DNA of 64,000 nucleotides, taken from the NCBI GenBank assembly GCA_963806325.1, contig CAWDXL010000002.1, forward strand, positions 64,250 to 128,249, in the 5' to 3' direction. The DNA comes from Candidatus Parcubacteria bacterium. GTDB taxonomy: Bacteria > Patescibacteriota > Minisyncoccia > Phycocordibacterales > JAKAEA01. Under the pieces are notes generated by a model, which ran no database searches, was not told the origin of the DNA, and saw only the letters and a program-made list of their open reading frames with translations. A program made the translations under genes and the position numbers. Shown here piece after piece: positions 29,484-58,195 of this stretch (within the stretch, counting starts at the first letter, position 1; the number at the start of each line of letters is the position of its first letter).

Positions 29484-31009
29484 ATGGCTTCAGACATAAA
29501 ACAACTTGAGAGCAAATTATGGGAAGCGGCCAATCATCTCCGTGCCAACTCCTCTTTGCGTCTCAATGAGTTTGCTGAACCTGTTCTTGGGCTTATTTTC
29601 TTGAAATTTGCTGATGTTAAATTCAATACCGCAAAAAATGAAATTGAGGCTGAACGAGGGCAAACAAGCTCAAAACGTCAACGATCCGTAACAGCCGAAG
29701 ATTTTCAGTCTCGTGGAGTTCTCTATATTCCAGAAAGTGCACGCTTTTCTTCCTCATTTCTCTTCCAGAAGGAACTGATATGGGGAAAGCAGTAAACGAT
29801 GCAATGAAAGAAATCGAATCAGATAATAAAGAGTTGTCTGGTATTTTACCAAAAAATTATAACCTTCTCGATAATCCTGCGATCATCACGCTTCTCAAAA
29901 ACCTCAATCATATTCCCGATAGTATTGAAGGTGATGCATTCGGGCTCATCTATGAATATTTCCTCGGCAAATTTGCAATAGCAGACGGTTCAGGTGGTGG
30001 TGAATTTTTTACTCCAACCTCTATCGTAAAATTGATTGTTGAAATTCTAGAGCCTTATCAAGGAAAAATTTACGATCCTGCTTGTGGCTCAGGAGGTATG
30101 TTCGTACAGTCTCTAGAATTTATCAAGCGTCACCTTGAAAATGGAAAGAAAGCAAAAGCATCACGTGAAATTTCTATTTACGGGCAAGAAAAAACTGACC
30201 AGACAGTTCGAATTGCAAAAATGAACTTAGCAATTCATGGACTCTCGGGTGATATTAGGCAAGGCAATACCTACTATGAGGATCTGCACCGCTCACTTGG
30301 TAAGTTTGATTTCGCAATGGCAAATCCACCATTCAACGTAGACGGTATCGATAAAGAGCGTATAAAAGATGATCCACGATTTTCTTATGGTCTACCACGT
30401 ACAGATAATGGTAACTACCTTTGGATACAAATATTTCTTAATGCACTCAAAGACGGAGGACGTGCTGGATTCGTTATGGCAAATTCGGTAAGTGATGCTG
30501 GACATAGCGAAAAAGACATTCGCCAGAAACTTATAGATGATGGGCTTGTTGATGTCATGATTTTAGTTGGCCCAAACATGTTCTATAACGTTACACTTCC
30601 CGTAACGCTCTGGTTTCTAGATAAAGGGAAAAGGAAAACTGATCGAAAAGATAAAATACTTTTTATTGATGCCCGCAATATTTACAAACAAATTGATCGT
30701 GCACACCGTGAGTGGACAAATGAACAAATAGAGCAGATTGCTGAAATTGTTCGTAGTTATCGTGGAGAAAAAGGATCCCAAAAGTATGCGGATATAAAGG
30801 GGCTCTGTAGAATAGCAACGCTTGATGAGGTGGTAAAAGAAGGATACTCACTCAATCCTGGTAGATATGTTGGCACCATTGAATTAACCCAATCTGACGA
30901 GGATTTTGAAAGTACAGTCAAAGCACTTTATGGTGAATTTTCAAAATTGACAGATGAAGCACACGATATTGAGAAGAAAATTGAGAGTAACTTTAAGAAA
31001 TTTTTTTAG
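29484..31009 (+). CDS. hsdM: Type I R-M methyltransferase subunit HsdM; frameshift near 29750
   Basis: The N-terminal HsdM_N segment (LESKLWEAANHLR), DPACGSGGMF and the NPPF motif are spread over two frames. Confidence 0.9.
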
Positions 31010-31010
31010 T

Positions 31011-32249
31011 ATGACCAATCAAACTCTTATAAAATGGAATAGCAAGAAATTGTCCGATATCTCTGATCACATAACAGTTGGTTTTGTTGGTTCAATGTCA
31101 TCACTTTTTACAGACAAAAGGGTTTTTCTTCCTTATTGAGAGGTCAAAATATTGAACCCTACCGCTTAAATCTAAGGAATATTAAACATATTTCTTTCGA
31201 AACTCATAACAAATGGAAAAAGTCATCTCTGATAGCTGGAGACGTGGCAATTGTTAGGGTTGGTTATCCTGGAACAGCTTGTGTTGTCCCGAAAGGGTTG
31301 GGGGATATAAATGCTGCCAGTTTGGTGATAGTCAGGCCAAATTCGAAACTATTAAATTCACACTGGTTAGAATTGGTCCTTAATTCTCCATGGGGAAAGT
31401 CTGCCGTTCAAAGTCGTTTAGTAGGTGCTGCACAGCAGGTATTTAACACCAAAACGGCCGCGGAATTAGAAATTCCATATCCTGATCAAAGTTCAAGACC
31501 AAATTGTTGATGTTATATATTCGTACAATAAGCTAATTGAAAATAATAATTACAGAATAAAAATTCTTGAAGACATTTCTCAAAAAATCTACACAGAGTG
31601 GTTTGTGAATTTTCGTTTTCCTGGATACGAGAAGGTAGAATTTAGTAAAGATGGTTTACCTGATGGATGGAGTAAAATGGTGTTGGATGATTGCATTTCT
31701 ATATACAGAGGTAAGTCATACTCAAGTGAAGATTTGATTGAAACTGAAAGTGGTATTCCTTTTGTTAATCTAGAATGTATAAAAAGATTTGGGGGATTCA
31801 GGAAGGATGGAATAAAGTCTTTTTCTGGCAAGTACAAAGAATTTCATAAAGTTAGTAAAGGTGACATTGTTATGGCTGTCACGGATATGACGCCAAAGAA
31901 TGATAGTTGCAAGATCGGCACGAATTCCGTACTATCGGGTGTTGATTTCGGTGTTATATCAATGGATTTAGTAAAAATTGAACCAAAGAATAATTGTGAG
32001 AAGGACTTTCTGTACTCATATTTCCGATGGTCAGATTTTTCAGATAATGTTAAAAATTACGCAAATGGAGCAAACGTGTTACATCTTACTCCTGACCGAG
32101 TAACTGATTATAAATTTGTATGTCCTCCAAAAAATTTACAAAAAGAGTTTTCTGATTTTGTTAAAAATCTATTTGAAGAAATAGATAACATTGAACTTTC
32201 TAACAATAATTTGAGTAAATTTCGTGACTTGCTTATACCGCAATTGTAA
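31011..32249 (+). CDS. hsdS: Type I R-M specificity subunit HsdS; frameshifts near 31130 and 31480
   Basis: Two TRD-like halves are separated by the conserved spacer QDQIVDVIYSYNKLIENNNYRIKILEDISQKIYTEWF. The pieces lie in three frames. Confidence 0.75.
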
Positions 32250-32275
32250 CTGGTAAGTTAGACAATTAAAATAAC

Positions 32276-35200
32276 ATGAACGAATTTTCTGAAGACAATT
32301 TAATTGAACAAACGGCCGTCAAAATATTTAGTGAGCTTTGGGGTGCAAAGAATTTTATCAATGCCTATTCCGAAGAAGGTGATGCTCCACTTGGTCGTGA
32401 TAATCAAGGTCAAGTTGTTTTGGTAAATCAACTTAAACCAGCACTTGAAAAACTTAACCAGATGTCCACAAGAAGCTATCACTCAAGCGATTAAGGAACT
32501 TACTAAAGATCGCTCGTCGATGAGTTTGGTTAATGCAAACGCGGAGAGATATAAACTCATTAAAGATGGAGTAAAAGTTGAGGTCAAGGATGAACGAGGA
32601 GCGATAGAAACAATAAATATAAAAGTTGTTGATTTCACTGATACCTACTAAAAATGATTTTCTTTTGGTATCACAAATGTGGATTACTGGAGACTTGCAC
32701 AAACGCCGTCCTGACCTGATCGGGTTCGTGAATGGTCTACCTCTTGTATTAATAGAACTGAAAGCCTCGCATAAAAATCTACGCAATGCTTATCAGGAAA
32801 ATATTCGGGATTACAAAGACACTATTCCCTCAACTTTTCTGGCATAACGCTTTTATTATCATTTCAAATGGCATTGAGAGTAAGGTTGGCACACTCACTT
32901 CTGCATACGAACATTTCAATGAATGGAAGAAAATTAAAGATGAGAGTGAGGAAGGTGGTGTTAGTTTAGAGACTGTCCTCAAGGGGACATGCGAACAGTC
33001 CCGCCTTTTAGATATAGTTGAAAACTTCACTTTGTTTGACGGCTCTCGTGGAGAACTCACCAAGATTGTTTCTCGGTATTTCCAATTCCTAGGAGTAAAT
33101 CGAGCTTTTGATCGCATTGAACACCGTGACGAGAATGGCGGCCGACTCGGTGTCTTCTGGCATACACAAGGTTCAGGTAAGTCATACTCAATGCTTTTCT
33201 TGTCTCAAAAAGTCTTTAGAAAACTACACGGCAACTTTACGTTTATTTTAGTGACTGATCGTAAAGAGCTCGACAAACAAATTTACAAAAACTTTGTTGA
33301 CTGTGGAGCAGAAACGAAAAAAGAGGTTCATGCTGAATCAGTACAAGAGCTACGTGATTTACTAGCTGAGGATCATCGCCATGTCTTCACACTCATTCAG
33401 AAATTTAATGAGCCGATTGAGCTTAACAAGCGTAGCGACATTATTGTTATGGCAGACGAAGCTCATCGCACACAGTATGATACATTCGCAAAAAATCTCC
33501 GTATAGCACTTCCGAACGCCGCTTTCATTGGCTTTACAGGTACACCGCTCATGGCAGAGGGCGAGGAGAAAACCCGATCTACATTTGGAGACTATGTTTC
33601 GACGTACAACTTTGCTCAATCAGTAGAGGACGGTGCAACTGTACCTCTCTACTACGAAAATCGCGTACCCAAACTAGAGAATGCAAACCCAGAGATTCAA
33701 AAGGATCTTGAGAAAGTTATGGACTACTACGACCTTGCTACCGAGGAGGAAGACAAACTTGAACAAGAATTTTCAACGTTCTATCACCTTATTTCCCGTG
33801 AAGATCGTTTGAATAAAGTCGCAGAAGATATCGTAACTCACTTTACGGCTCGAGGTTATGACGGCAAGGCGATGGTGGTGTCAATTGATAAAAAGACAGC
33901 CATTCGCATGTACGTAAAAGTGAAAGAGCAAATGCAACGCTACATAGCGAAACTAAATATTGCGGTATCAAAAGCAAAGGACGATCACGAGAAGGAGGCT
34001 ATACGAGAACAGATACACAAGTACGAAGACATTGATATGGCAGTCGTCGTGAGTCAAAGTCAAAATGAAATTGCTGACATGGAGGAATTTGAGATTGATA
34101 TGCGACCAATTCGTGCACGCATCTTGGACGAAGATCTCGAAACGAAATTCAAGGATCCGACTGATAATCTTAAAATTGTCTTTGTTTGCGCAATGTGGAT
34201 GACGGGTTTTGATGTACCAAATCTCTCAACTCTCTATCTCGATAAACCTCTTAAAAATCATACACTGATGCAGACAATTGCTCGTGCCAATCGTGTCTAT
34301 CCAGGTAAGACAAACGGACTTATCGTGGACTATGTCGGAGTATTCCGTAATCTGCAGAAAGCACTTGCTATCTATGCAATAACAAAAGATGGCTCTGGCG
34401 ATATTATTCAAGACAAAGATGAGCTTGTAGAAATTCTATTTTCTAAGGTTGCAGAAACACGAAAATTCCTGAAGTCGCTTGAGCTAAATATCAACGAATT
34501 ATTGGAAGCAAAGGATATTGAGAAAATACGACTTGTTGATGTATTTACAAATCGTATTCTTGCTGATGAGCAGACAAAACAGAGATACCTAGAACTTGCG
34601 GGTAATGCGTATACATACTACAAAGCAGTTTTGCCAGAACCAAAAGCTGAAGACTATTATCATGAGGTCACTGCGTATAAAGTAATAGCATCTCGTATTC
34701 GTGAAGTTGTCGACGAAGACACCGACGTATCGCAAGTGAAGAAAGACCTCGAAGATCTTCTCGATCGCTCTATTCGAGCTGGTGAGTATGTCATTAAAGA
34801 TACGCCAAAAATCAAAGACCTTAGCAAGATTGATTTTCAAGCATTGAGAAAGTTTTTTGATGATTCAGATACAAAAAATATTGAGGCGGAACAACTCAGT
34901 GCTGAACTAGAGGAAAAGATAAAAGAAATGGTGAAGAAGAACAAACTCCGTAAGCGATTTCTCGATAGGTTGAATATACTTTTGAGTGAGTACAATTCTG
35001 GCTCGCATGATCTTGATGCTTTTTTCAATCAATTAGTTGAACTAGCTAAAGAGTTGAGCGAAGAAGATCGTCGTGCTATTTCGGAGAATCTGACAGAGGA
35101 AGAATTGGCCGTTTTCGATCTTCTAAGAAAAGACGATCTAAATCCAGATGAAACCGACCAAGTAAAGAAGGTTGCCAAAGAACTCGTCACAAAACTCAAA

Positions 35201-35395
35201 CTAGAAAAACTGGCTCTAGATTGGAAGAAGAAGGAAGAGACTAGAGCGGATGTAAAAGTTACTATTCGTGATATTTTGTATGATAATCTTCCAGAGCCCA
35301 CATATTCACAATTTGACTGCGAGGATCGAACTCAGAAGGTTTATTTGCATGTCTACGATAGTTACATTGATGGAAAAATTAATGTTTATATATAG
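32276..35395 (+). CDS. hsdR: Type I R-M restriction subunit HsdR; three frameshifts (about 32460, 32640, 32830)
   Basis: The N-terminal nuclease region (PDLIGFVNGLPLVLIELK), Walker A HTQGSGKS and the DEAH box (MADEAHRTQ). Four consecutive ORFs step through the frames. Confidence 0.9.
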
Positions 35396-35398
35396 TTT

Positions 35399-36181
35399 AT
35401 GGAAACACAGGAAGATAAAAAGATAATACTTTCACAAGTGATCGAAGGGCTTGAGTCTCTCACTTCTATGCATCAAAAAATTGCTGAGAAGTATGAATCT
35501 ATGATGATAGGACTTCAAAAAGAAAGAAGAGATATGTTTAGATATTTAGGCACTATTGCGGGTGGTGCTGCAGCATTGGCTCCGCAACTTATTAATTATG
35601 TTGATCTGAAGAGTCACTATTTCTATTGGGGCTTATCCTTTCTTTTAATTTGTATAATTATCGCAATTAGTAACGTAATCTCAACCTTGGAAAAAAGTGC
35701 CGAAGAATTAACTACAGAATTTAATAAGGTATTTGCAGATATAGAAGAAATGAGAAAATTAAAAATAGAATTTATTGAGACTGGAGATATTAGTCCTGAT
35801 GCCTGGAAGAAACATACTGAGAAAGATTTACAAACAATAAAAAAACTTAAGAAAGATGTAGACTTAAGAAGGATCAAGAAAGTGAGTCAGGGGTTTTATA
35901 GACCAATGGATTATACAAGTGAATATCTTATATTTTCTTTTATTTTAGGCATAGGACTAATAATTTTATCCGTAACACATACTGCTCTAGGTAGTAAATT
36001 ACTTTGGCTATCTATTTTGGGTATTTTCATAATAATTAATATTATTAGTATTTTTCCAACAAAAATATTCACAGTACTTGGTTTTCCAATGGATATAGCA
36101 AAAGGAACATTCAGAAAGATATTTCAACAACAAGCACGAAATAAATCACTCGGCGTAGAAAATGTTGATCATAATATTTAA
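35399..36181 (+). CDS. Hypothetical 4-TM membrane protein, tightly coupled to hsdR
   Basis: 260 aa, starting 3 nt after the hsdR stop. Two TM pairs flank a roughly 90-aa charged helical segment. Confidence 0.6.
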   Translation: METQEDKKIILSQVIEGLESLTSMHQKIAEKYESMMIGLQKERRDMFRYLGTIAGGAAALAPQLINYVDLKSHYFYWGLSFLLICIIIAISNVISTLEKSAEELTTEFNKVFADIEEMRKLKIEFIETGDISPDAWKKHTEKDLQTIKKLKKDVDLRRIKKVSQGFYRPMDYTSEYLIFSFILGIGLIILSVTHTALGSKLLWLSILGIFIIINIISIFPTKIFTVLGFPMDIAKGTFRKIFQQQARNKSLGVENVDHNI

Positions 36182-36341: not shown

Positions 36342-36452
36342 TTGGTGAGCTGTTGGTAACTCGACTACACAAATTTTCCAATCTAAGCTAAGGTGCATGG
36401 ACTAATACAATAGGCCATTGTATTATGTGAACACAGCTGAATAAGTAGTTAA

Positions 36453-36609
36453 GTAGCCTAAATCTCACAAATCCTTGTGGGGCATGGTGAAAGTATCCGC
36501 AAAAGCATAAAAAACTCCTCGTCAGAGTTGCTTTTGCGGTCATACTGGGAAACTGGTATGGGTGGTCTTCGGATCATCAGTCTGGCGGGGAGCTTTTTGT
36601 TTCCGCTAC
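36453..36609 (+). ncRNA. Unclassified structured RNA motif, copy 1 (5' leader of the 36631 gene)
   Basis: P1 is GUAGC/GCUAC (36453-57 / 36605-09). A receptor-like CCUAAA...CAUGG pair brackets hairpin 36465-80. There is an 11-bp helix 36497-507/36529-39 with an A-rich bulge, a GAAA hairpin at 36543-58 and a UUCG hairpin at 36563-76. The helices covary with copy 2. Confidence 0.6.
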
Positions 36610-36630
36610 ATTATCAAAACCGCAAAAGTT

Positions 36631-39490: not shown

Positions 39491-41293
39491 CTAGTATCCG
39501 CCCATCTTTTTTCTGAAATCATCCAATGCCTCCCGTTGCCAGTATTCTCTGTCTGCCTTCTGCGCTTTTAGAAGCTCTGCTTTTATGCGTGCTATTCGCG
39601 GATCGCCAACTGCCATCTCCTGTCTAATGATTATTTCCTGATCAGCCTCTCGCTCCTCTTCCTCTTGAGATCTTTTTGGCTTAGGCTCATCTGGTCTTGG
39701 AAAAGAAAATTTATTACGCGTATAGTCGCGCATTTCAGAGTACGCAAACCACAGCGCCATCAATGAGTCGCCGGTGTGGCCGTCCGGGTACGCCCGCATT
39801 TCATTTATCAGTAAAGTAATGAGCTTTCGTGTCCGGGTATCTCTGTTGCTGTAGGGCAATACAACTTTTCCCTGCGCTAGAATAATAGAGAGGCTGTTGA
39901 CTCCAATATCCGGATCATTCTTTTCTTTGCCGGTATGATAACTTGTGATAGGGATGCCGGCATCTTCTAGATCGCGGCTCATGGATTCCTGGTAGGCAAC
40001 GCTTTCAACCCGAATGCCTCCCGGCTTTACTATTGCGTCATGTCGCGCAACCATATCACGAACGTCTTTGGGCCGCATTTTGCCCCGCTCAATATTCCGG
40101 ATAACATAATCTCCGGCTTTAATATCACCGCTGCCGTATTTCACCCGATCAATACTTAAGAGTACCGTATCATCACTTTGAGCATCGAGCGATATTGCCA
40201 AATCAAGCCCGGAGGTGGTATTTTCCGTTTCGTATTCGGTGCGTTCCGCATCCTGCAAGACCAAATCTTTTCCTTTTCGGAGCGCTTCCTCGATCTCACT
40301 CTCTTTAAATTTCTGATTGGGTCGGATTGTCGGATCACACTGATACATGCGAGCGAATGAATAGGGATTTGCAATCCGCAGCAGCACCAGATCTTTGTAC
40401 GGAAAGCGTTCCGGCCACAGCACCTCTACGCCGGATTCCATCTCCGCTTTATTTTTTGCATAGTACGCGGCAGCTTCTTTCTTCTTGTCTTCAGGAGAGA
40501 GTGTCTCGTCTAAATGGATGTTTGACCACTCATCCCAAAGATCTTGCCGTGTCGCTTCGTGCATTATGGCCGGCATCTTTTTGCGGACGTCAAACTGCGG
40601 GTCTTTGAGGAGGTTGCTCATGAGGTCATCCATATGCCACGTATTACCGAGGTAAATGAATTTGCCTCCCGGCACGAGCACTGGCATGAGAGTCGTGTAG
40701 ACCCAGTCTTTAATCTTTTGCCGCTGATCCTCAGTCATCGAATTTTCCTGATTTACAAGGTCATCAACGATAATAATGTCGGCTCGCTTGGAAAGAATAG
40801 AGCCGAAGAGGCCGACAGCATTAATCGTCGGATCCTTGAGCTGCAAATTGTCGCGGTCGATGACAATCGAATCATTCGTCCATTTTTGTTGCTGTTTGCG
40901 ATTTTTTCGCAGCCGCGGAACAACTCCTTTGCCGGAACTATCGATAGCCTTCGCCCACAGCTGGTATTTATTGTTTCCTTCAATATGTCCCGTGATTTCT
41001 GACATGAAGCTTTGTGCTATCTGTGCCGTGCTTGAAACGAGTAAAATTCTAACGTCATGGTTTTTGGCAATTTCCCAGAGCGGATATGCTACCGACAAGT
41101 GCGTTGATTTGCCGTGGCCGCGCGGCAGGGCGATTGAGAGCTTGTTGTACGTCTTGTTCGAAAGGTAATCATCAAGATCATTATGGAACTGGACATTATT
41201 AAGCCCAACTACCTCTGATACGAATATTCTAAAGTTGTCAGATATGAGCTGGATGGCAGCAGCAACATTCTTAAATTTTTCTTTGTTCTCCAT
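39491..41293 (-). CDS. terL: Phage terminase large subunit
   Basis: 600 aa with Walker A-like LPRGHGKST and Walker B IIIVDDLV, plus a C-terminal nuclease-like region. It overlaps the upstream TerS-like gene. Confidence 0.8.
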   Translation of the reverse strand: MENKEKFKNVAAAIQLISDNFRIFVSEVVGLNNVQFHNDLDDYLSNKTYNKLSIALPRGHGKSTHLSVAYPLWEIAKNHDVRILLVSSTAQIAQSFMSEITGHIEGNNKYQLWAKAIDSSGKGVVPRLRKNRKQQQKWTNDSIVIDRDNLQLKDPTINAVGLFGSILSKRADIIIVDDLVNQENSMTEDQRQKIKDWVYTTLMPVLVPGGKFIYLGNTWHMDDLMSNLLKDPQFDVRKKMPAIMHEATRQDLWDEWSNIHLDETLSPEDKKKEAAAYYAKNKAEMESGVEVLWPERFPYKDLVLLRIANPYSFARMYQCDPTIRPNQKFKESEIEEALRKGKDLVLQDAERTEYETENTTSGLDLAISLDAQSDDTVLLSIDRVKYGSGDIKAGDYVIRNIERGKMRPKDVRDMVARHDAIVKPGGIRVESVAYQESMSRDLEDAGIPITSYHTGKEKNDPDIGVNSLSIILAQGKVVLPYSNRDTRTRKLITLLINEMRAYPDGHTGDSLMALWFAYSEMRDYTRNKFSFPRPDEPKPKRSQEEEEREADQEIIIRQEMAVGDPRIARIKAELLKAQKADREYWQREALDDFRKKMGGY

Positions 41294-41720
41294 TGTTTTT
41301 ATTGATTATGTCTAAATATGGCTCGACTAATTTTTGCGTCTCGGGCTTGAGCTGACCGAATGCCTCGAAATACAAATTTTCCTGATCATCCTGAGCGATA
41401 GCTAATCCCGATTGGAACATTTTCTGCTTATAGTCAGGATGTTTGTACTTAAGCCAAAATATAATGGCCGTCAGGTTGCCAGCCTTAATAGCAGAGATGA
41501 GCTGAGATTCAGCAGCATCGCAGACGAAGGCGGTGCCATCAGCAAGCGCAGCATCAGCGGCTTTCGAGAATTCTGGATCTTCATTGCGCCAGCGGTAGTA
41601 GGTAGCGCGGGCGACAGCTACTTTCTGACAGGCGACTTCTACAATTGGTGTTTGCTTAAATTGTGTGATGAGCAGGTCTTTATTTGTCTGGGTTTTGTTC
41701 ATATAGTTTAATTGCTTCAA
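41271..41720 (-). CDS. Terminase small subunit-like HTH protein
   Basis: VARATYYRWRNEDPEFSKA...AIIFWLKYKHPDY, positioned immediately upstream of terL. Confidence 0.55.
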   Translation of the reverse strand: MKQLNYMNKTQTNKDLLITQFKQTPIVEVACQKVAVARATYYRWRNEDPEFSKAADAALADGTAFVCDAAESQLISAIKAGNLTAIIFWLKYKHPDYKQKMFQSGLAIAQDDQENLYFEAFGQLKPETQKLVEPYLDIINKNNGEQRKI

Positions 41721-42474
41721 TTCCTGTTAAATCTTCAAACTGTTCGAGTATTGACCGCACGTAGTCAGCATCAAGTTCGATACCGATGCAGATTCTCTTT
41801 GTCTGTTCGCACGCGAAAAGTGTTGTGCCGGAGCCGAGAAAGCCGTCAAACACCACGTCTCCGATGCGCGTACTGTTTAATACCAGCCGACGGATGAGCC
41901 CAATCGGTTTTGTTGTAGGATGGCGCGGGCTTTTCTGGGGCTTCGGATGGACGATAACGCTTTTGTCGTTTGATTTCAGAAATTCATGGACGCCGTACCA
42001 GCCATAGGCGATGAGTTCATGCTGGGGCGCATAGTCCATACGGCCAATAACGGCACTCGTTTTGACCCATATGAGCAGCTGTCCGAATTTCATTCCAGCC
42101 TGGAGCATGCCGTCATGCAGCGCGAAAATCATCCGATCGCTGTTGAAGATATAGAAGGCATTCTTGCGCTCAAGGTGCGGTTTCAGCGCCTCGATCCAGC
42201 CGCAGGTAAAGGCGGTGTATTCCACATCGCTCTGAAGATGGTCATTGGCAATAGCTTTATTTTTCTTTAGTGTCTGAAAACCTTCCTTGCTTTCGGCCAC
42301 CGCTATGCCGTAGGGCACATCAGCAATGACCGCTTTAATTTTATTTGCCCCGACAAGCTTTTTGACGAGATCTGTATCTCGGCAATCACCAAGCGCAAGG
42401 AAGTGATTCCCGAGTTTAAAGATATCTCCGTAGCTAATTGATCTTTCTTGCTTTTTTATTGGTGAGTTTTTCAT
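41680..42474 (-). CDS. DNA N4/N6 methyltransferase (beta class)
   Basis: Motif IV-like IADVPYG comes before motif I VFDGFLGSGTT. Confidence 0.8.
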   Translation of the reverse strand: MKNSPIKKQERSISYGDIFKLGNHFLALGDCRDTDLVKKLVGANKIKAVIADVPYGIAVAESKEGFQTLKKNKAIANDHLQSDVEYTAFTCGWIEALKPHLERKNAFYIFNSDRMIFALHDGMLQAGMKFGQLLIWVKTSAVIGRMDYAPQHELIAYGWYGVHEFLKSNDKSVIVHPKPQKSPRHPTTKPIGLIRRLVLNSTRIGDVVFDGFLGSGTTLFACEQTKRICIGIELDADYVRSILEQFEDLTGIEAIKLYEQNPDK

Positions 42475-43711
42475 ATCGATTAATGATGAGCTGACAGAAG
42501 ACCGGTTCGATTTCTGCGAGTCGTGATTGGCGCTTTAGGGCTTCGCAAGCGACTAACAGGCTGCCACTTCCAGCCGTTAAATCTAAAATAATGTCTCCCG
42601 GCTTGCTGCAGCGCCGGATGGATTTTTCGTAGAGCGTCGGGGGCTTCATGGTGCTATGTTCATATTGATTACCGGGTAGCCGTTGTACGAGCCATATGTG
42701 GAAAATGTCCATGATGTCGTCGATCAGCCGATTGCCACTACCAATTTCTTTGTTCTGAAATTCACTCAGATTTTTTATTTTGTCCGACAAAAAGGGATGT
42801 CCTTTTAAACCATACATACACAACTCGACCGCCCGATTGAAAGCAATTTGAGGCGTTGGGTTGTGCGATCCTTTACACCACATACAGAGCCTCTTGAAAT
42901 GTATATCAAGCTCTTTGTATATTTCTTGCAGCAGACCGATATATTTTTCATCGAGCCATGAGAAGATATGGCAGTCATCCTTGCTAACTGATAGGGCGTT
43001 GCGTAGAATACTTGTGAGAAACTTCCGATACTCGGCGTCTGATTTTTTGTCATTGATCGTTCCACCATAATTTTGTTTTCCGCCGAGGCCTTTGGAATAG
43101 TCCACGCCTATGTTGTATGGAAAATCAATGTTTATGAGATCTATCTTTTCCTTGCCGACAAGCCTTTTAACCGTATTAGGATCAGTACTATCGAAGCAAA
43201 TCAAACGGTGTATACCGAGCTGGAATAGATCACCTGATTTGATTGAGGTTGTCTTGGCTTTTTCCAATTCCTGTTCCTCGTTAATGCTGTCATCGATGAC
43301 TTCAAGGTTATCGTCGAAGATGTTACTCAAATCGGCTGAATCGAAGCCGGCGGTGAGAAGAAGATCGAGATCAAAATCTTGGCCTAAAATATCCCAATTA
43401 AATTCGCCGCCTGAGCGGTTACTCGTGAGCAAGTAGTCTTTAAATTCCTGGTCGGTTAATGTTCTGTTTGGAATTCTGACTTCGATTTCTTCTTCTCCGC
43501 GCCCGAGCAGCTGGAGTATTTTTATGCGTTGATGCCCGGCAATTATAGTGCCATCGGTATTAATGGCTGGCAGTTCGACGAGATTGAATTTCTTAAAGCT
43601 GCGCTTTAAGTCATCCACCTGCTTATCCGATATGACCCTTGGGTTTTTTGAATAGGGTAGCAGACTATTCACTTTGCGTTTTACCGTCCTCCAGTCTAAT
43701 TTTTTCGACAT
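42434..43711 (-). CDS. ParB-like nuclease domain fused to a DNA methyltransferase
   Basis: ParB-N (NPRVISDKQVDDLKRS...IIAGHQR), then motif IV-like IDFPYN and motif I ILDLTAGSGS. Confidence 0.8.
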   Translation of the reverse strand: MSKKLDWRTVKRKVNSLLPYSKNPRVISDKQVDDLKRSFKKFNLVELPAINTDGTIIAGHQRIKILQLLGRGEEEIEVRIPNRTLTDQEFKDYLLTSNRSGGEFNWDILGQDFDLDLLLTAGFDSADLSNIFDDNLEVIDDSINEEQELEKAKTTSIKSGDLFQLGIHRLICFDSTDPNTVKRLVGKEKIDLINIDFPYNIGVDYSKGLGGKQNYGGTINDKKSDAEYRKFLTSILRNALSVSKDDCHIFSWLDEKYIGLLQEIYKELDIHFKRLCMWCKGSHNPTPQIAFNRAVELCMYGLKGHPFLSDKIKNLSEFQNKEIGSGNRLIDDIMDIFHIWLVQRLPGNQYEHSTMKPPTLYEKSIRRCSKPGDIILDLTAGSGSLLVACEALKRQSRLAEIEPVFCQLIINRYEKLTNKKARKIN

Positions 43712-43845
43712 ACTTATTTCTAACTAATTAATAATAATCATTCCTCTACTAACACTACCCAAGCGATAGGGTCGTTTTGTGACATATGAAAAAAGTCATC
43801 ACTACGTGTGATAACTTTTTTGATACCGAATCCTTAATTTAAGGT

Positions 43846-44871
43846 CTATTTTTGCAGAATCTTTTTTAGGCTTTTCACTGCGCGACTTTTTGCTTTTCGC
43901 TGGGCGGGGTTCAATTTAGCACCTTTAAAATCTTCTACGAGCGCTTTTTGTTCCAATGGAGATAATTTCTCCATGGCCATATACAGATCCTTAATATCAA
44001 GCTCCATGTGTTTTGGCAGAAGATCGAATAATGACTCGTCAATCTCATCTATGGAAGGGTGTGCTCTCTTTTTAAATTTTGAACCGCTGCGGCCTTGTTC
44101 ATAATCTATGAAGCGTAAAAAGAGTAATTTTGGTAGGTCATTTAACTTTAATTTTGATCCCAATCTATCGACTGTTCTTCCAACTTCTTGTAACGCAAAC
44201 GACATATCCCCAAAAGCCTCTGACTGTGTAATTTCATAAAAACTTTTTCTGAAACCAGACCAGAATCTTTTAAGGCGCAACATCATATCAGCCCTCGTCT
44301 TATCGTCGCGCGGAGTATTTTGCGGTGTCTGACCAAGCAGGGTAATTGTTGCTAAAATGCCCATACGCTTGGCTTCAAGAATTTTTATATCCTCTTCCCA
44401 TTTTTTAATCATGCTCAGCGTCACGCCCGGCGCATTTTTCTTCAAATCTATTTCTGTCATTTTATCCATGAACCCTATCAATACTCGTGGTTCTTGCTCA
44501 AGTTGCTCTGCATATTTTTCATAGCTTGAGAGATCAAGAAAGATCGGAACTTCATATTCTTCCTCTACCCGGAGCATGGGATTGTGTGGTGCCGAGCCGG
44601 AGTTGTCATATAAGCTGAGTATGAAAGAGGATAGTCTCGGAATATCGTTATCAGTGATCGGTCGCTCTGCCCCTTTCAAAAATTGCTTTAGCATATAGAT
44701 CCGAAGGTAGATATCAGATACGCGAAAGAGTCCGGGGTGGAGCATACGCTGGCGGTGATATATAACCAATTCTTTTTTGAGAGTTTTAGGACTACCAATG
44801 CTACGTTCAAATTTTTTCAAAGCTTTTTCAAGCTTACTTGCGCTACTGGGAGTTTTTGGCTGTTTTGTCAT
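43846..44871 (-). CDS. Hypothetical protein with a sigma-70 region-4-like C-terminus
   Basis: 341 aa. The C-terminus LSPLEQKALVEDFKGAKLNPAQRKAKSRAVKSLKKIL resembles a region-4 HTH. I recognise no family. Confidence 0.45.
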   Translation of the reverse strand: MTKQPKTPSSASKLEKALKKFERSIGSPKTLKKELVIYHRQRMLHPGLFRVSDIYLRIYMLKQFLKGAERPITDNDIPRLSSFILSLYDNSGSAPHNPMLRVEEEYEVPIFLDLSSYEKYAEQLEQEPRVLIGFMDKMTEIDLKKNAPGVTLSMIKKWEEDIKILEAKRMGILATITLLGQTPQNTPRDDKTRADMMLRLKRFWSGFRKSFYEITQSEAFGDMSFALQEVGRTVDRLGSKLKLNDLPKLLFLRFIDYEQGRSGSKFKKRAHPSIDEIDESLFDLLPKHMELDIKDLYMAMEKLSPLEQKALVEDFKGAKLNPAQRKAKSRAVKSLKKILQK

Positions 44872-45044
44872 GCTTCTTAATTCATAAGCTTATATACTAA
44901 TTATACTCTTGGAAAGGTCGTTTTCTTCTTTTTATCGACCGAAATATTGAGAATGCCTTTTTATAGTGTCTTTACTGTCTCGCGCTCTTCAAAAAACCCT
45001 TATATTACGTGAATTATGCAAAAATAATGAGACACATGCAAATA

Positions 45045-46673
45045 CTACATGGTGATGCGGAGGGGTTGTTTTGAGGCTAGCAAAATCGCTCGAAAAGGCT
45101 TACACTGATTGGTATTACTATGTTCGCGACCCGAGTCGCTCACCAAACGATTCTTTTCATCACCAAACTGCGATTTAACGTTGTAGATTGGGCATAATTC
45201 AAGAGTTTTAATAGCTGGATAAGTGTAAATGATATTTTGAGGGAAAAGCAGGGTTCTTAAAACTCTTAAATCTTTTACATCTAAGTCTTTCCAAGTTTCA
45301 GGAAGATGTTTTAGAAAATAAATACTTGAGTCAATGATATTATCTAATCCAAACTCGGGCGTGGAGAGATTATTCATTTCTTGTCTCAAGGCTTCGATTT
45401 GAAGTTTATACTTTTCATTGGCTGGTACAAAATCTTCATCTGATATTTTTCCCTCAATTCTTAAATCGAGCAACTTTTCCTTTTTGTCTTTTATTTCTGC
45501 GATATTAGCATTCAATTTTCTTTCGGATGATGTAACAGAACTTAGCTCAGTTTTGTGAGCCATTTTTATTGCTTCTTTAAGAATGTCAAAAAAATCGTCA
45601 TTAGGAGTAAGCTCTGCAAGAAATTTGGTAAAGTCTTTTTCCATATCAATTTTTGAGATGGCTTTTCTTTTTAGACAATCTTTATTGTAACATCCGTAAT
45701 ACTGGTAATATTTTTTAGTTTTACTCCTTGATGGTCCTCCAGACATATTTTTACCACATCCATCACATTTTATTCCGCGCAAAGGAAAGTTTGGATTATC
45801 CAGATTACGAGGATTCTTTCTACCAATATTTATGCCATGTCGCACATCTTGAGCCTGTCTGTATAATTTTTCACTGATAATTGGTTCGTGGGAACCCATC
45901 ACTGATACCTGAAACTTTAGAACTGTAATCATTCCGTAGTAGATTGGATTTGCGATTATTTTAGCTACGAGTTGTTTGCTAATCTTCAAACCATGCTTAC
46001 TTTTCATTCCCATTTTGTTTGCCATAATGGCTAGTTCCCTAAAGGTATATTTCCCAGTCACATAATTTTCATAGAGCATTTTCACCACCGGAGCTTTTTC
46101 AGGATGAGGAATAATTATTTTATTTCCTAACTTATCTGTAGTGTTTAGGTAACCCCAGGGGGCAACTCCACTCCATAACCCTTTTAATAACCTCGCTCTC
46201 ATGCCCTCGCTTGTTCTTATAGACCTAACATCATTATCAAGTTGAGCAACAGCCGAGAGGATCGTTTCATTGAATTTTCCAGAAGGTGTGTCTTCAAGAT
46301 TCTCAGTTGCAGATGCCAATGAGATTCCAAGTTTATTGAAGAATGCTCTTAAGCTGAGGTGGTTTGCAGTATTTCTTGCCAATCTATCAACCTTATAAAC
46401 TACAATTCTGTCAATATTTTTCTTGTTTCTTTCACAATACATCATCATCTGTTGAAGCTTTGTTCTGTCAGTAGTTTTGGCTGATTCTCCCTCCTCTCTG
46501 AAGGATTGAAGCACATTGTGTAAAGTTCTGTGAGAAAATTCCGTGCAAAATTTTTCTTGATTGTCTAAACTGAAATTAAAAGTTTGTTCTTGTGAGGATA
46601 CTCTATAGTAGTGAACATCATTTTTCGGCTTCTCACTTTTGTAACTAAAATTTTTCATGTTTTTTATGATCAA
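45045..46673 (-). CDS. Large serine recombinase (integrase type)
   Basis: YYRVSSQEQ...SLDNQ, VDRLARN, a recombinase domain and a zinc ribbon (CDGCGKNM...YYGC). Confidence 0.9.
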   Translation of the reverse strand: MIIKNMKNFSYKSEKPKNDVHYYRVSSQEQTFNFSLDNQEKFCTEFSHRTLHNVLQSFREEGESAKTTDRTKLQQMMMYCERNKKNIDRIVVYKVDRLARNTANHLSLRAFFNKLGISLASATENLEDTPSGKFNETILSAVAQLDNDVRSIRTSEGMRARLLKGLWSGVAPWGYLNTTDKLGNKIIIPHPEKAPVVKMLYENYVTGKYTFRELAIMANKMGMKSKHGLKISKQLVAKIIANPIYYGMITVLKFQVSVMGSHEPIISEKLYRQAQDVRHGINIGRKNPRNLDNPNFPLRGIKCDGCGKNMSGGPSRSKTKKYYQYYGCYNKDCLKRKAISKIDMEKDFTKFLAELTPNDDFFDILKEAIKMAHKTELSSVTSSERKLNANIAEIKDKKEKLLDLRIEGKISDEDFVPANEKYKLQIEALRQEMNNLSTPEFGLDNIIDSSIYFLKHLPETWKDLDVKDLRVLRTLLFPQNIIYTYPAIKTLELCPIYNVKSQFGDEKNRLVSDSGREHSNTNQCKPFRAILLASKQPLRITM

Positions 46674-46808
46674 ACCAATTAAACCTCCGAATCTGATAAT
46701 CGCAAAATTTGAATCAAAGAAATTAAAACAGTAGGGAACGCTAAAATTGTTGCCTTATGGTGAGGAACCACCGCTGAGGGATTCCCCACGTAAAGCAACA
46801 AAGACTGC

Positions 46809-47198
46809 CTAGGAGTGCTGCTTTGGCTGTTTACAAGCGTATCTAAGCATCAAGTCAACTATGGATATCACTTTTATTCCTCGGAATTTCAGAAATCGTC
46901 TTAATCTCTGTAATCCAGCGGAGTTATTTGAGAGTCTGCCGATATCCGTGACAATTAGGAATTTTATCTTTCTGTTTAGCTTGATATATTCCATCATCTC
47001 TTTGAACGCAGGTCTGTCAAAATTTTTAGCAGAGATATCTTTCTCAGGAAAAATCTTGATAAGATTGATGCCTTTTTCATCGGCAAAATCTGTAATTGCT
47101 TTTTTCTGTTCCTCAAGGCTGTAGATGTTTTCTAATTCTTTATTGAAGAACCTAACATAGGCTATTGCATTCCCGAAAAATATTTTTGAATCATTCAT
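46809..47198 (-). CDS. Resolvase N-terminal-domain protein lacking the catalytic serine
   Basis: 129 aa. AIAYVRFFNKE...SLEEQ has RFF where the family has RVS. TDIGRLSNN is retained. There is no DNA-binding or recombinase domain. Confidence 0.55.
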   Translation of the reverse strand: MNDSKIFFGNAIAYVRFFNKELENIYSLEEQKKAITDFADEKGINLIKIFPEKDISAKNFDRPAFKEMMEYIKLNRKIKFLIVTDIGRLSNNSAGLQRLRRFLKFRGIKVISIVDLMLRYACKQPKQHS

Positions 47199-47359
47199 TA
47201 TTTTTTATCGTTAATATTCTTAATTTTTGAGTGTACGAGGAATAATCCAAGGTCATATAGATTTTGGGCTATTTTCTCAGCTTCACTATCACTGATCTGA
47301 CTGTCCTTATTTTTTAGGAGATCTTTGAGTTTTTTGACCCCCTCCTCTTTTTCCAGCAT
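47198..47359 (-). CDS. Small hypothetical protein (53 aa from the internal Met)
   Basis: MLEKEEGVKKLKDLLKNKDSQISDSEAEKIAQNLYDLGLFLV... It abuts the next gene, so its stop overlaps that gene's start. Confidence 0.35.
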   Translation of the reverse strand: MLEKEEGVKKLKDLLKNKDSQISDSEAEKIAQNLYDLGLFLVHSKIKNINDKK

Positions 47360-47406
47360 TACAGTTTTTGTAACCTTTGAGAGGCCAGATTTTTTCCAAC
47401 AAAAAA

Positions 47407-47473
47407 CTAGCACGCAAAAGTAATTAAACAATCAATTCACGAATGATTGCGGTTAATTACTTTTAGATGCTAG
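47407..47473. promoter_or_regulatory. 67-bp nested palindrome upstream of the recombinase operon
   Basis: ctagca..aaaagtaattaa..caatca-ttcacgaa-tgattg..ttaattactttt..tgctag. Confidence 0.45.
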
Positions 47474-47753
47474 CTGGCGGAGGCAACCCTTAGCAGGTTA
47501 CACGCTTTTATTGTATTGATTTGTTATCTGTCATTCCGCATGCTTCTAAAGGCTCTCATTTTGTGCTGGACACGCCTTGCAATTTTCTATCAGAAACAAA
47601 GTCAAAATCTAACACTTCCTGGGTCAATACCCAAAAGTATTATGTCAAAAACATTTCTATTAAATTTTCAAGGTTCGACCACCTGAAATACTTACTCACG
47701 TTTATCGACCATACTGAAACGATACTAAAGATTATAAAAAATAACAAGCTCAT

Positions 47754-47786
47754 TTAATTCAATTGCAAAATATGCAATTGAATTAA
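47754..47786. promoter_or_regulatory. Perfect 14-bp inverted repeat with a 5-nt spacer (candidate operator)
   Basis: ttaattcaattgca-aaata-tgcaattgaattaa, about 45 nt upstream of RNA motif copy 2. Confidence 0.45.
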
Positions 47787-47830
47787 TAAACTGTCTATGT
47801 TACTGTTCAAATACAACCGAATATCGAAGA

Positions 47831-47974
47831 GTAGCCTAAATCAGCAAGTCATTGCTGACATGGCGAAAAATCGCAGAGTACAGAAAACCCGATCATAAGG
47901 GCGTACTCTGCGTTGCTGGAGGAAACTTCAGTAGAGGCTTCGGCCTTCCTTGTGGTCGGATTTTTCGTGCCTAC
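47831..47974 (+). ncRNA. Unclassified structured RNA motif, copy 2 (5' leader of the 48004 gene)
   Basis: P1 is GUAG/CUAC. CCUAAA (47835-40) and CAUGG (47859-63) bracket hairpin 47843-56. There is a 10-bp helix 47872-81/47903-12 with an AGAAAA bulge, a GAAA hairpin at 47916-31 and a UUCG hairpin at 47934-47. Confidence 0.6.
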
Positions 47975-48003
47975 CACTAGGAGTTATTAATTAATAACCT
48001 AGT

Positions 48004-48615
48004 ATGGAAAACGCAACAGGCTCTCCTAAGAAAAAATGGTTCATGCGTCCAGCCGTTATATGGACGTTTGTAATATTAATATTGTTTGTAGTTGTCATGG
48101 TGAGTGGATTATTTTTGAACGGTAACAATAGTTCTACATCTCCCTCTATTGATACTCCAAACCAACAAGAAAATAGTCAGACGACTCCTTTTGCGACCAC
48201 GACAATAACAGACCTGATAAATAATCCACAGTCCGGTAGTCTCGTTCAGGTAACAGGAGTGATAGCGCAGAAAGGGGAATTTACATATTCAAACAATACG
48301 AGCTATTACCTAAAAATTACCAACGGCATAGACTCTACCTTGGTCCAATTATCTGATGGCAGTGGGACAACTCCTCCAAAATACGCACTCAACCAGTTCG
48401 TTGATGGTGAAACTATCTCTGTTCAAGCAGGGGAAGGAGAATTGGGTTCTTGTAGCGATACAGAGGATGGTGATGTCATCGGAAAGATGTGCACTTTGTT
48501 TGGTGTATGGAATCAAAAGAGTGTCCCTGTACTCATTCCCATTAACATTACTGTTGTTCAGAAGAATCCAACCTCGGTTACAAATGACTCTGTTTCTAGT
48601 GCTACAAAACAATGA
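48004..48615 (+). CDS. TM-anchored extracellular beta-rich protein
   Basis: 203 aa with one TM (VIWTFVILILFVVVMVSGLFL). Its architecture resembles the 38433 protein. Confidence 0.55.
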   Translation: MENATGSPKKKWFMRPAVIWTFVILILFVVVMVSGLFLNGNNSSTSPSIDTPNQQENSQTTPFATTTITDLINNPQSGSLVQVTGVIAQKGEFTYSNNTSYYLKITNGIDSTLVQLSDGSGTTPPKYALNQFVDGETISVQAGEGELGSCSDTEDGDVIGKMCTLFGVWNQKSVPVLIPINITVVQKNPTSVTNDSVSSATKQ

Positions 48616-49338: not shown

Positions 49339-49419
49339 ATGGAACAAACAAAAAAGTGCCCACACTGTCAAAAAGAAATTTCGATACTTGCAACAAAGTG
49401 TCCGTAGTGCAAAAGCTAA
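49339..49419 (+). pseudogene. Truncated paralog of the 38433 zinc-ribbon N-terminus (in-frame TAG at 49405)
   Basis: MEQTKKCPHCQKEISILATKCP*CKS* compares with METTTKKCPYCQKEIDANARKCPFCQS. Confidence 0.5.
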
Positions 49420-49610
49420 GTGGGGTACTGATTATACGATGGTTCAATACGAGTATAATCAGCAAGTTCATGCTTATAAAAGTATGTAAGGGCACAGTTT
49501 GTTGCACAAATTCAAGCACAGCATTAATGGTGGCGTTGGAGGGAGTAGTGATAAAATTACCAAATACACCTTTACATTATTCTTAGTGTGAAATAGTATA
49601 CACATTAAAT

Positions 49611-57421: not shown

Positions 57422-58195
57422 ATGAAAAAATATTTAACCCTTGGATTACTCCTCTCCGTGATAGTGTTAGCTTCTCTTTTTATTCAGCCACCGCAAACAT
57501 CTGCACAGATTGATAACAATCAGTGCATTATCCTTACGAATAATCTTGCGTATGGATCTCAAGATATATCTGTGAGCGGTTCTGTATCTACACTACAAAA
57601 CTACCTCAGCACCTTAGGTTATTTTACATCGCAACCAACAGGTTATTTCGGCTCTATTACGCGTACTGCGGTAGAAAAATATCAGGCCGCATATAGTATC
57701 ACTGCCACGGGTTTTGTCGGTCCGCTTACTCGCGCTTATATAAAAACAAGTACGTGCGGAAATACTGCTCCAATTACCGGTAATCCCACAGGCTGTTTGC
57801 TAGGCAATATCTACAATACAGCAACGGGAGTGCTGTGTACTGCACCTGCAACATCTGCTTCACCGGTGATTAGCCAATTGTCACCATCATCCGGTCCATT
57901 AGGTACAACGGTCATAATTACTGGCAGTGGTTTCAGTAGTTTGACAGCAGGCACTACTACGATCGTGTTTGATGGTGTTGATGCCGGTGCTGCGGCCACT
58001 GCCTCCAATATAAAATTGTCTTTTGTTGTTCCGGTCTATCAGCCAGGATATTGCTCTCAGTTACCGTCAAATGGTGGCGCGAATATACAAACTTTGTGTG
58101 ATCCAATTCCGCAAGTTGCTCAAGGCAGTCACACAATTGCAATTCAGACTTCGGGTGGCACAAGCAATACCGCTATATTTACCGTAACAAATTAA
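57422..58195 (+). CDS. Secreted protein with a PG-binding-like domain and an IPT/TIG-like domain
   Basis: A signal peptide, LQNYLSTLGYFTSQPTGYFG...GFVGPLT and PVISQLSPSSGPLGTTVIITGSGF. Confidence 0.65.
   Translation: MKKYLTLGLLLSVIVLASLFIQPPQTSAQIDNNQCIILTNNLAYGSQDISVSGSVSTLQNYLSTLGYFTSQPTGYFGSITRTAVEKYQAAYSITATGFVGPLTRAYIKTSTCGNTAPITGNPTGCLLGNIYNTATGVLCTAPATSASPVISQLSPSSGPLGTTVIITGSGFSSLTAGTTTIVFDGVDAGAAATASNIKLSFVVPVYQPGYCSQLPSNGGANIQTLCDPIPQVAQGSHTIAIQTSGGTSNTAIFTVTN

Follow-up and report, generated by a model that had tools for sequence, protein, structure and literature searches.

LOOT RNAs in a Parcubacteria genome as candidate bistable 5' leaders of the genes downstream

Two LOOT RNAs ahead of protein-coding genes

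Patescibacteria are ultrasmall episymbionts. The DNA analyzed here, a stretch of 64,000 nucleotides from a Candidatus Parcubacteria bacterium (assembly GCA_963806325.1, contig CAWDXL010000002.1, positions 64,250 to 128,249) that we call the window, carries two copies of a structured RNA, the LOOT RNA (Rfam RF03000), each located upstream of a protein-coding gene. Copy 2, our main subject, precedes a gene that starts at 48004, and copy 1 precedes a gene that starts at 36631. In both cases the Rfam motif is the core of a longer unit, whose parts are given below; R1 is a covariance model of this extended unit (170 positions), and MFE stands for minimum free energy.

47798-47812, plus strand: putative −10 region (TGT TACTGT) and spacer of copy 2, placed by analogy of position
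47813-47830, plus strand: conserved 5' leader ACAACCGAAUA and linker, outside the Rfam model
47833-47947, plus strand: LOOT core of copy 2 (cmscan, 71.0 bits)
47834-47836 with 47862-47864, plus strand: P1/receptor, GCC with GGC; CCUAAA at 47835-47840, CAUGG at 47859-47863
47841-47858, plus strand: P2
47872-47881 with 47903-47912, plus strand: P3 stem
47882-47902, plus strand: P3 apical loop AGAAAACCCGAUCAUAAGGGC (MFE fold); 47883-47887 and 47889-47900 pair with the tail
47914-47933, plus strand: P4 with GAAA loop
47934-47947, plus strand: P5 with UUCG loop
47948-47965, plus strand: 3' tail, CCUUGUGGUCGG (T) followed by A and UUUUU; partner strand of the P3 loop, outside the Rfam model
47971-47983, plus strand: anti-tail CUACCACUAGGAG, complementary to tail UCCUUGUGGUCGG (−12.7 kcal/mol); overlaps the 5' arm of the next hairpin
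47976-48003, plus strand: start-proximal hairpin ACUAGG-AG-UUAUU-AAUU-AAUAA-CCUAGU (sequence and MFE fold), directly before the ATG at 48004
48004-48615, plus strand: open reading frame (ORF) of 203 amino acids with an N-terminal membrane anchor, the proposed regulated gene
36433-36630, plus strand: extended leader of copy 1 (R1, 125 bits); 5' motif 36433-36443, Rfam core 36455-36578
36497-36507 with 36529-36539, plus strand: P3 of copy 1; loop 36508-36528, tail 36581-36599, anti-tail 36600-36607
36619-36630, plus strand: duplicate of the P3 5' strand of copy 1, ACCGCAAAAGUU, directly before the ATG at 36631

The assignment to LOOT is clear. With a gathering threshold of 46.4 bits, cmscan scored copy 2 at 71.0 bits (E = 2.4e-11 over the whole window, 1.5e-13 locally) and copy 1 at 76.3 bits, and both alignments cover model positions 1-121 of 121. 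The Rfam scan of the window at gathering thresholds returned two tRNAs and these two LOOT matches and nothing more, and no other Rfam family, riboswitches included, matches the copy 2 locus at E ≤ 1. The extended model gave 112 bits for copy 2 and 125 bits for copy 1, and compared with shuffled sequences their folds have z-scores of −5.8 and −3.9, respectively. Because both copies belong to RF03000, the motif itself is already known, and as an annotation the window copy is ordinary. To our knowledge, LOOT is known only from environmental sequence. It came from the 2017 screen of Weinberg et al., which yielded 224 candidate structured RNAs (PMC5737381), and the one other mention that we found, a CaCoFold analysis, lists about 43 base pairs for it in six helices, with 28 "cross-covariations" (PMC7657543). 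The Rfam entry is typed "Gene; sRNA" (small RNA) and has no function assigned. Our literature search, which did not extend to the original LOOT supplement, found no functional study of LOOT and none on riboswitches of the candidate phyla radiation (CPR).

The first-pass annotation of this DNA had noticed a repeated motif with shared unpaired segments and with helices that differ while staying complementary, and every one of these segments and helices was found where it had been placed. Both copies contain GUAGCCUAAAUC (47831-47842 and 36453-36464) and CAUGG-Y-GAAA; the GAAA and UUCG loops of copy 2 (47922-47925 and 47939-47942) recur in copy 1, a U5 tract lies at 47961-47965 and at 36594-36598, and the P3 apical loop is 21 nt long in each copy (47882-47902 and 36508-36528). 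The helices, in turn, differ in sequence and keep their complementarity: P2 is UCAGCAA/UUGCUGA in copy 2 and UCUCACAA/UUGUGGGG in copy 1, P3 is CGCAGAGUAC/GUACUCUGCG and CCGCAAAAGCA/UGCUUUUGCGG, P4 is UGCUGGAG/CUUCAGUA and CAUACUGG/CUGGUAUG, and P5 is GAGGC/GCCUU and GGUGGUC/GAUCAUC. In the family alignment the two copies agree at 41% of paired columns and 73% of unpaired columns, which indicates structural constraint and is the opposite of recent duplication followed by random drift, the origin that the annotation had named as its own counter-explanation.

A family of relatives with a common extended layout

Relatives were collected with a strict search pattern, GTAGCCTAAA-N(12-26)-CATGGYGAAA, which gave at least 119 matches in contigs sampled at one genome per species; about 100 of these are true LOOTs according to a structural parse. 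The family counts used below (103, 101, 94, 88, and 85 leaders or loci) are drawn from the matches listed. Among these, the relatives fall almost entirely within Patescibacteria/CPR, in groups that include Parcubacteria/Paceibacterota, Taylor-, Nomura-, Adler-, Zambryski-, Vogel-, Yanofsky-, Kerfeld-, Morani-, Doudna-, and Gottesmanbacteria and "Saccharibacteria," and several metagenome-assembled genomes hold two copies. This host range agrees with the Parcubacteria origin of the window, as do its near lack of Shine-Dalgarno sites and its diversity-generating retroelement, both described below. Each 8-kb locus yielded exactly one R1 match (32-178 bits where the match is full length), so no tandem LOOT arrays occur in these loci. 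In viral contigs the strict pattern had six matches, of which five are real LOOTs and one (L122) arose by chance; an initial scan of viral contigs with a looser pattern gave mostly chance matches and was discarded.

Both window copies share with Rfam LOOT the CCUAAA/GCAUGG loop, the long P3, the GAAA loop of P4, and the P5 tetraloop. In copy 2 the internal loop around P2 (CCUAAAC/GCAUGG in the family) is found as CCUAAAUC at 47835-47842 and ACAUGG at 47858-47863, and the series of tetraloop hairpins from P2 to P5 is present; in an alignment of 88 sequences (A3), P2, P4, and P5 have 94-98% of their cells paired. The one departure is local. The Rfam model draws an 8-bp inner helix at the apex of P3, and in both copies cmscan found its pairs to be largely noncanonical; the apical nucleotides pair with the 3' tail instead, and the score still exceeds the gathering threshold. 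The Rfam model also stops at P5, whereas the window copies and about 100 CPR relatives add a promoter-like box, the sequence ACAAYUGAAUA, and the tail and are always followed by an ORF.

Upstream of the core, 103 LOOT loci display, in this order, a TGnTATAAT-like box, a spacer of 6-7 nt, and ACAAYUGAAUA some 6-10 nt before GUAGCC. The last motif is conserved in A3, and the window has it at two places, 36433 and 47813. A mutual-information scan of A3 found no covarying partner for it; in a few loci (e.g., L221 and L236) it could be paired by eye with sequence beyond the U-tract. The segment 47813-47830 is likely the 5' end of the transcript. At copy 1 a promoter scanner called TGGACT-17-TATTAT, ending at 36426. 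The putative −10 of copy 2 (TACTGT, 47801-47806) is weaker than that of copy 1 and is preceded by a weak −35 (TTGAAT, 47778-47783), and the consensus promoter scanner made no call at this site. A perfect 9-bp inverted repeat, TTCAATTGC-N7-GCAATTGAA (47758-47782), lies just past the stop of a mechanically called ORF (47521-47757) and reaches as far as the putative −35; either an operator or a terminator-like hairpin is conceivable here.

The core has one further element of known type. The canonical 11-nt GAAA tetraloop receptor has the sequence CCUAAG...UAUGG (bioRxiv 10.1101/2024.03.11.584472). The P1/P2 internal loop of LOOT, CCUAAA...CAUGG, is similar and is accompanied by an invariant GAAA loop on P4, but it carries A/C in place of the receptor's G.U wobble. 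Receptors of this kind occur in group I and II introns, RNase P, and c-di-GMP-I riboswitches. Sequence likeness thus suggests that the P4 loop probably docks into the CCUAAA/CAUGG loop and compacts the core. The invariance of receptor and GAAA loop in our sample is not independent evidence for such docking, since the search pattern fixed these bases; they are also conserved in the Rfam consensus.

A loop:tail helix that probably competes with P3

What the first-pass annotation listed separately as a purine-rich bulge, the P3 loop, and the U5 tract are the two strands of one long covarying helix, which it missed and which lies outside the Rfam model. The apical loop of P3, made up of an A-rich segment and about 13 nt, is complementary over roughly 17-20 bp to the tail that follows P5, itself composed of about 13 nt, a single nucleotide, and UUUUUG. 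We call this the loop:tail (LT) helix. In copy 2 it joins 47889-47900 with 47948-47959 and 47883-47887 with 47961-47965; in copy 1 it joins 36515-36526 with 36581-36592 and 36508-36513 with 36594-36599.

Several lines of evidence support the LT helix. Its strands are wholly different between subtypes and still complementary (CCCAUCAUAUGGGG/CCCAUGUGGUGGG, CUCCUAGUCAGAG/CUGGCUAGGAG, ACAGAAA/UUUCUGU, and CACUGA/UCAGUG). Duplexes between a loop and its own tail have a mean energy of −23.9 kcal/mol, compared to −15.6 kcal/mol for tails of other leaders and −8.5 kcal/mol for shuffled tails, and none of 2,000 permutations reached the own-tail mean. RNAalifold predicts the helix from a plain MAFFT alignment, and an unbiased mutual-information scan recovers both it and P3. 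In the 88 sequences, 98.4% of LT cells are paired, with changes on both sides in 10 of 15 pairs, and 85.6% of P3 cells are paired, with changes on both sides in 9 of 10 pairs; for the whole structure the figure is 95.1%, compared to 76.2% for shuffled sequences and 37-43% when partners are slid. Inside LT there is also a conserved mismatch (A3 columns 112 and 203; A.C in 70, C.A in 6, A-U in 4, and G-C in 2 of the 88), which is C47888/A47960 in copy 2 and A36514/C36593 in copy 1 and is flanked by near-invariant A-U and C-G pairs. Together with the A/C in the receptor-like loop, this mismatch could hint at protonation or metal dependence.

LT and P3 appear to be alternatives. The P3 hairpin has a loop of 21-24 nt on a stem of 10-11 bp, and a loop strand held in a 20-bp duplex would extend over some 56 Å, with 1-3 linker nucleotides available. 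Pairing of the full loop while the stem stays closed would require the tail to thread through the loop; on this geometric ground the two helices should exclude each other. In constrained-ensemble calculations the P3-closed and LT conformers are nearly isoenergetic (mean ddG of −1.7 kcal/mol, LT being lower in 56 of 85 leaders), and in this near balance LOOT resembles a bistable element.

Connection to the downstream start codon

Across 94 leaders, the distance from the U-tract to a same-strand ATG that begins an ORF of 50 codons or more has a median of 40 nt (10th to 90th percentile, 13-52), and in about 90% of leaders there is a same-strand ATG within about 60 nt. This fixed position and orientation, together with the promoter-like box upstream, favor a cis-regulatory leader over a free sRNA. 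A trans-acting sRNA would be expected to be an independent gene with a 3' end of its own, while LOOT has a fixed relation to the downstream ORF and complementarities that extend up to its start codon. As in riboswitches, it appears to be a conserved structured domain in the 5' untranslated region of a regulated gene. The comparative context therefore supports the cis-regulatory reading better than it does the Rfam sRNA label.

Two sets of complementarities run from the core to the start region, and both are specific to the individual leader. The tail is complementary to the downstream anti-tail (own, −9.8 kcal/mol; cross, −8.1 kcal/mol; 0/5,000 permutations), strongly so (≤−10 kcal/mol) in 40 of 85 leaders, copy 2 among them, usually at −45 to −25 from the ATG. 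The 3' strand of P3 is complementary to the start-proximal region (own, −7.0 kcal/mol; cross, −5.4 kcal/mol; 0/5,000 permutations), reaching the same strength in 14 of 85, usually at −18 to −1; the control with the P3 5' strand gave p = 0.79. Copy 1 belongs to the latter set, as its P3 3' strand pairs with the ACCGCAAAAGUU duplicate at −14.9 kcal/mol, covering positions −12 to −1.

The hairpin at 47976-48003 that had been noted next to the ATG of copy 2 is real (ACUAGG...CCUAGU). It had been described as burying an AGGAG (47979-47983), and that sequence is part of the anti-tail rather than a Shine-Dalgarno site. We rejected it as a sequestered Shine-Dalgarno sequence because it lies 21 nt from the ATG in a genome essentially without such sites: the core motif precedes 2 of the 45 genes of the window and none of the 85 LOOT-led ORFs. 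In an organism that does not use Shine-Dalgarno sequences, structure over the start region is a plausible point of control. Sequestering the tail lowers the predicted accessibility of the copy 2 start region modestly, from 0.58 to 0.43, and going from the P3-closed conformer (A) to the LT conformer (B) lowers it from 0.47 to 0.38. Many window genes (e.g., 11764, 18007, and 2596) have a TATAAT-like box that ends about 7 nt before the ATG, which suggests that leaderless or very short-leader mRNAs are common in the window; LOOT leaders of about 190 nt would be exceptions.

Proposed mechanism and alternatives

These observations make it fairly probable, in our judgment, that LOOT is a bistable 5' leader that acts in cis on the translation of the gene downstream. 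Membership of the family, the covariation of P3 and LT, the fixed leader position, and the complementarities are established, and the mechanism proposed from them is as follows. A 5' leader of about 190 nt would be transcribed ahead of the 48004 gene from its own promoter, with both transcript ends placed from the sequence, and its core would be a string of hairpins (P1/P2, P3, P4, and P5) braced by the presumed tetraloop-receptor dock. State A would have P3 closed and the 3' tail paired with the downstream anti-tail. In state B the tail (47948-47965) would zip onto the P3 loop (47883-47900) and exclude closed P3. For copy 2, state B would release the anti-tail, permit the hairpin at the ATG to form, and lower initiation, and state A would leave the start region open. 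For copy 1, state B would release the P3 3' strand, which could then base-pair with the ACCGCAAAAGUU duplicate directly ahead of the ATG. We infer the ON/OFF direction, and likewise the existence of a trigger, which might be a ligand, an ion, pH, temperature, or a protein.

A broader version of this proposal is one that we put forward tentatively, as a possibility rather than an expectation: LOOT would be a CPR-specific, riboswitch-like sensor and no sRNA, its receptor-braced core would choose between P3 and LT, and this choice would set how genes for surface and secreted proteins and for mobile-element cargo are translated in bacteria without Shine-Dalgarno sites. Candidate signals would be pH, Mg2+/K+, temperature, or a metabolite, the first three in view of the A.C mismatch of LT and the A/C in the receptor-like loop. 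The first-pass annotation had suggested a cis-regulatory leader or a riboswitch-like element, and the context across relatives upholds the cis leader before genes for surface and membrane proteins.

Several points weigh against a bistable translational switch. Nested constrained folds of 85 leaders show no systematic difference in start accessibility between the two states (0.54 versus 0.53; p = 0.71), and such folds cannot represent the pseudoknot of the P3 3' strand with a start-proximal P3 copy alongside LT. A second accessibility test, with the tail sequestered, was mixed in direction across the family, and for a subtype with CUUUUUGCGU ... ACGCAAAAG the logic would be inverted. The mutual exclusion of P3 and LT is argued from geometry. 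No single function or pathway is shared by the 85 downstream proteins, unlike the situation with typical metabolite riboswitches. Finally, the family sample rests on a pattern that fixes GUAGCCUAAA...CAUGGYGAAA, and the matches listed are a biased subset.

LOOT might instead act on transcription, with the LT helix and C-UUUUU-G forming a long-range intrinsic terminator that closed P3 prevents, giving either an RNA of about 150 nt or read-through. The layout of A-rich segment, stem, and U-rich segment is that of terminators, U5 is kept as U's in most leaders beyond what mere pairing demands, a terminator scan marks one site in copy 2, at 47939-47960 plus U5 and overlapping P5 (with none in copy 1), and attenuation would reconcile the Rfam type "sRNA" with the leader position. 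We nevertheless hold such an attenuator to be unlikely. Its A-rich:U-rich segment covaries (ACAGAAA/UUUCUGU and CACUGA/UCAGUG), which an RNA:DNA hybrid does not need; the U run is broken in some lineages (UUUGUGU and CUCAGUG); two hairpins would lie inside a "terminator loop" of some 55 nt; and terminator-like sites are not enriched in the genome (16 found versus 20.4 expected). Moreover, the own-specific anti-tails and P3 5'-strand copies lie 3' of the U-tract and hence cannot affect termination. Dispensing with the switch altogether, one could see in LOOT a constitutive structured leader that stabilizes the mRNA or assists the loading of ribosomes in an organism without Shine-Dalgarno sites, the alternative pairings being folding intermediates. 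This would suit the great diversity of downstream genes, the way promoter and leader move together, often on mobile elements, much as a portable expression cassette would, and the lack of a systematic predicted change in accessibility. It does not sit well with two incompatible helices that are both kept by compensatory change at balanced energies, or with own-specific complementarity that ties these helices to the start region, and we consider it quite unlikely.

The last two alternatives seem to us weaker. A free-standing, trans-acting sRNA, as typed in Rfam, for which proximity to a downstream gene would be incidental, fits the U-rich stretch past the structured core and the multiple copies per genome; we find it improbable in view of the narrow distribution of start-codon distances, with that same-strand ATG in some nine-tenths of leaders, and of the covariation of internal strands with sequences that run past the U-tract to the start codon. 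To the idea that LOOT acts as DNA we give very little credence. Here its 5' part would be, or overlap, the attachment site of a serine recombinase, and the window copies would mark the two junctions left when an element inserted itself into a LOOT on the chromosome. About 30 of 101 loci do have a divergent serine recombinase upstream, at a distance of 177-535 nt in 11 cases; the genes of the window (copy 1 -> cargo <- TerL TerS methyltransferase ParB-methyltransferase serine recombinase / copy 2) follow the order that results when the compact form described below is opened at LOOT and circularly permuted, which suggests integration there; and the 5' ACAAYUGAAUA is conserved with no RNA pairing partner. 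Yet the strand-specific, G.U-rich covariation, the presence of GNRA loops, and the constant sense orientation relative to the ORFs that follow argue for an RNA function, most LOOT loci have no recombinase nearby, and one locus with the permuted order (L228) has no second LOOT beyond the recombinase according to R1. An RNA function would in any case be compatible with a DNA site.

The bistable leader has partial precedents. Cobalamin-type riboswitch platforms are likewise structured 5' leaders in which a loop of the domain pairs with a downstream strand and the pairings reach the start. Their aptamer loop, however, makes a short kissing contact with a downstream loop that includes the ribosome-binding site, whereas the LT helix has about 20 bp and would exclude P3 sterically rather than through shared nucleotides, and the genes downstream of LOOT are functionally diverse. 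The hok/sok mRNAs and attenuator leaders (1:2, 2:3, 3:4) also relay mutually exclusive helices toward a start codon, as copy 2 would from P3 loop to tail to anti-tail to start-proximal arm; unlike them, LOOT has no leader peptide, antisense RNA, or toxin-sized ORF, and the first choice in its relay is topological.

Our literature search found nothing on gene regulation in Patescibacteria. As reinterpreted here, LOOT appears to be a widespread 5' leader of this group, with its own promoter and an unmodelled long-range helix that opposes its main hairpin. If that is true, an RNA switch ahead of surface and secreted proteins and of mobile-element cargo would offer a testable handle on host-facing regulation, and the portable module of promoter plus leader might serve for inducible genetic tools, which a recent review calls for (PMC11665869). 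LT as a helix missing from the Rfam model and its presumed competition with P3 deserve further work, as do the CPR host range and the association with mobile elements.

Genes led by LOOT

Among 85 LOOT-led proteins, 64 have a hydrophobic segment, in 60 cases within the first 40 residues, and 10 have N-terminal zinc ribbons. By sequence clustering, 50 are singletons, and the largest cluster consists of 18 zinc-ribbon or lysine-rich/transmembrane/OB-fold proteins; others are proteases, nucleases, peptidoglycan-binding proteins, DUF805 proteins, and a response regulator. The window protein encoded at 38433 belongs to the largest cluster, and the comparative check proposed for it in the first-pass annotation came out in favor of the leader, with homologues directly led by LOOT in seven loci (L123, L172, L153, L239, L228, L151, and L159). 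For the 48004 protein, a search of 5.8 billion proteins found no homologue besides itself (an ORFan). The annotation had further seen paralogous zinc-ribbon/transmembrane proteins at both window loci; this is right for 38433, while at the second locus there is only a stop-interrupted pseudogene fragment, MEQTKKCPHCQKEISILATKCP* at about 49339-49420, with 70% identity over 23 amino acids to the N terminus of the 38433 protein.

Other genes in and outside the window resemble LOOT-led ones. The segment 48612-49077 is a decayed, frameshifted gene whose N terminus (MNPAEEIVKFWLQGRGYFLQSS...) resembles an intact LOOT-led protein at another locus (L190). A protein with PG_binding_1 and TIG domains (57422-58195) is distantly paralogous to the protein that LOOT leads at 36631 (27.6% identity over 156 amino acids); there is no LOOT upstream of its gene, R1 having found only the two copies in the whole window. 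In two IMG/VR contigs, LOOT leads a NucS_C-like nuclease of the PD-(D/E)XK type (L098, 5838-8089; L020, 4403-5676). A second nuclease follows in L098, and the LOOT-led unit adjoins methyltransferases, a reverse transcriptase (RT), and a MoxR/CobT-like ATPase, a gene group that may be a restriction or defense module under LOOT control.

Mobile-element context

Between the two LOOT-led loci, on the minus strand, lies an element (39491-47431) that is phage- or satellite-like and has no structural genes. Its genes are as follows.

39491-41293, minus strand: TerL
41271-41720, minus strand: TerS
41680-42474, minus strand: N6/N4 methylase
42434-43711, minus strand: ParB-methyltransferase, followed by an ORF of 341 amino acids
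45045-46673, minus strand: large serine recombinase
46809-47198, minus strand: resolvase fragment, followed by an ORF of 77 amino acids

Neighbors were searched in 101 LOOT loci, each covering up to 8 kb in genomic contigs and up to about 15 kb in IMG/VR contigs, and a strong association with this gene set emerged. Homologues of the large serine recombinase were found in 38 of these loci, of the ParB-methyltransferase in 21, of TerS in 19, of the methyltransferase in 17, and of TerL in 6. The recombinase lies upstream and divergent, and the Ter and methyltransferase genes lie downstream and convergent. The set recurs in L070, L073, L098, L124, L147, L150, L151, L153, L154, L156, L159, L172, L175, L199, L203, L214, L228, L235, and others. 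Its compact form (<- serine recombinase / LOOT -> zinc-ribbon/transmembrane/OB gene <- TerS <- methyltransferase <- ParB-methyltransferase) may constitute a mobile element that is small, some 7-8 kb; the contigs L070 and L073 measure 7.2 and 7.8 kb in total.

RT genes also occur near LOOT. Homologues of the L098 RT, with 44-51% identity, lie within a few kilobases of LOOT in L073, L098, L149, L186, L226, and L235, and the RT of L020 was identified separately by PHROGs. In the window itself, a bAvd-like protein (540-887, minus strand) is located beside an RVT_1 reverse transcriptase (1015-1923, plus strand), the hallmark pair of a diversity-generating retroelement. Farther along, a tRNA gene (25327-25398) is followed by a defense or mobile island (region 25327-36181) that encodes an OLD-family ATPase/nuclease (26098-27957), a large serine recombinase (28013-29335, minus strand), and the methylase and R subunit of a type I restriction-modification system (29780-35395).

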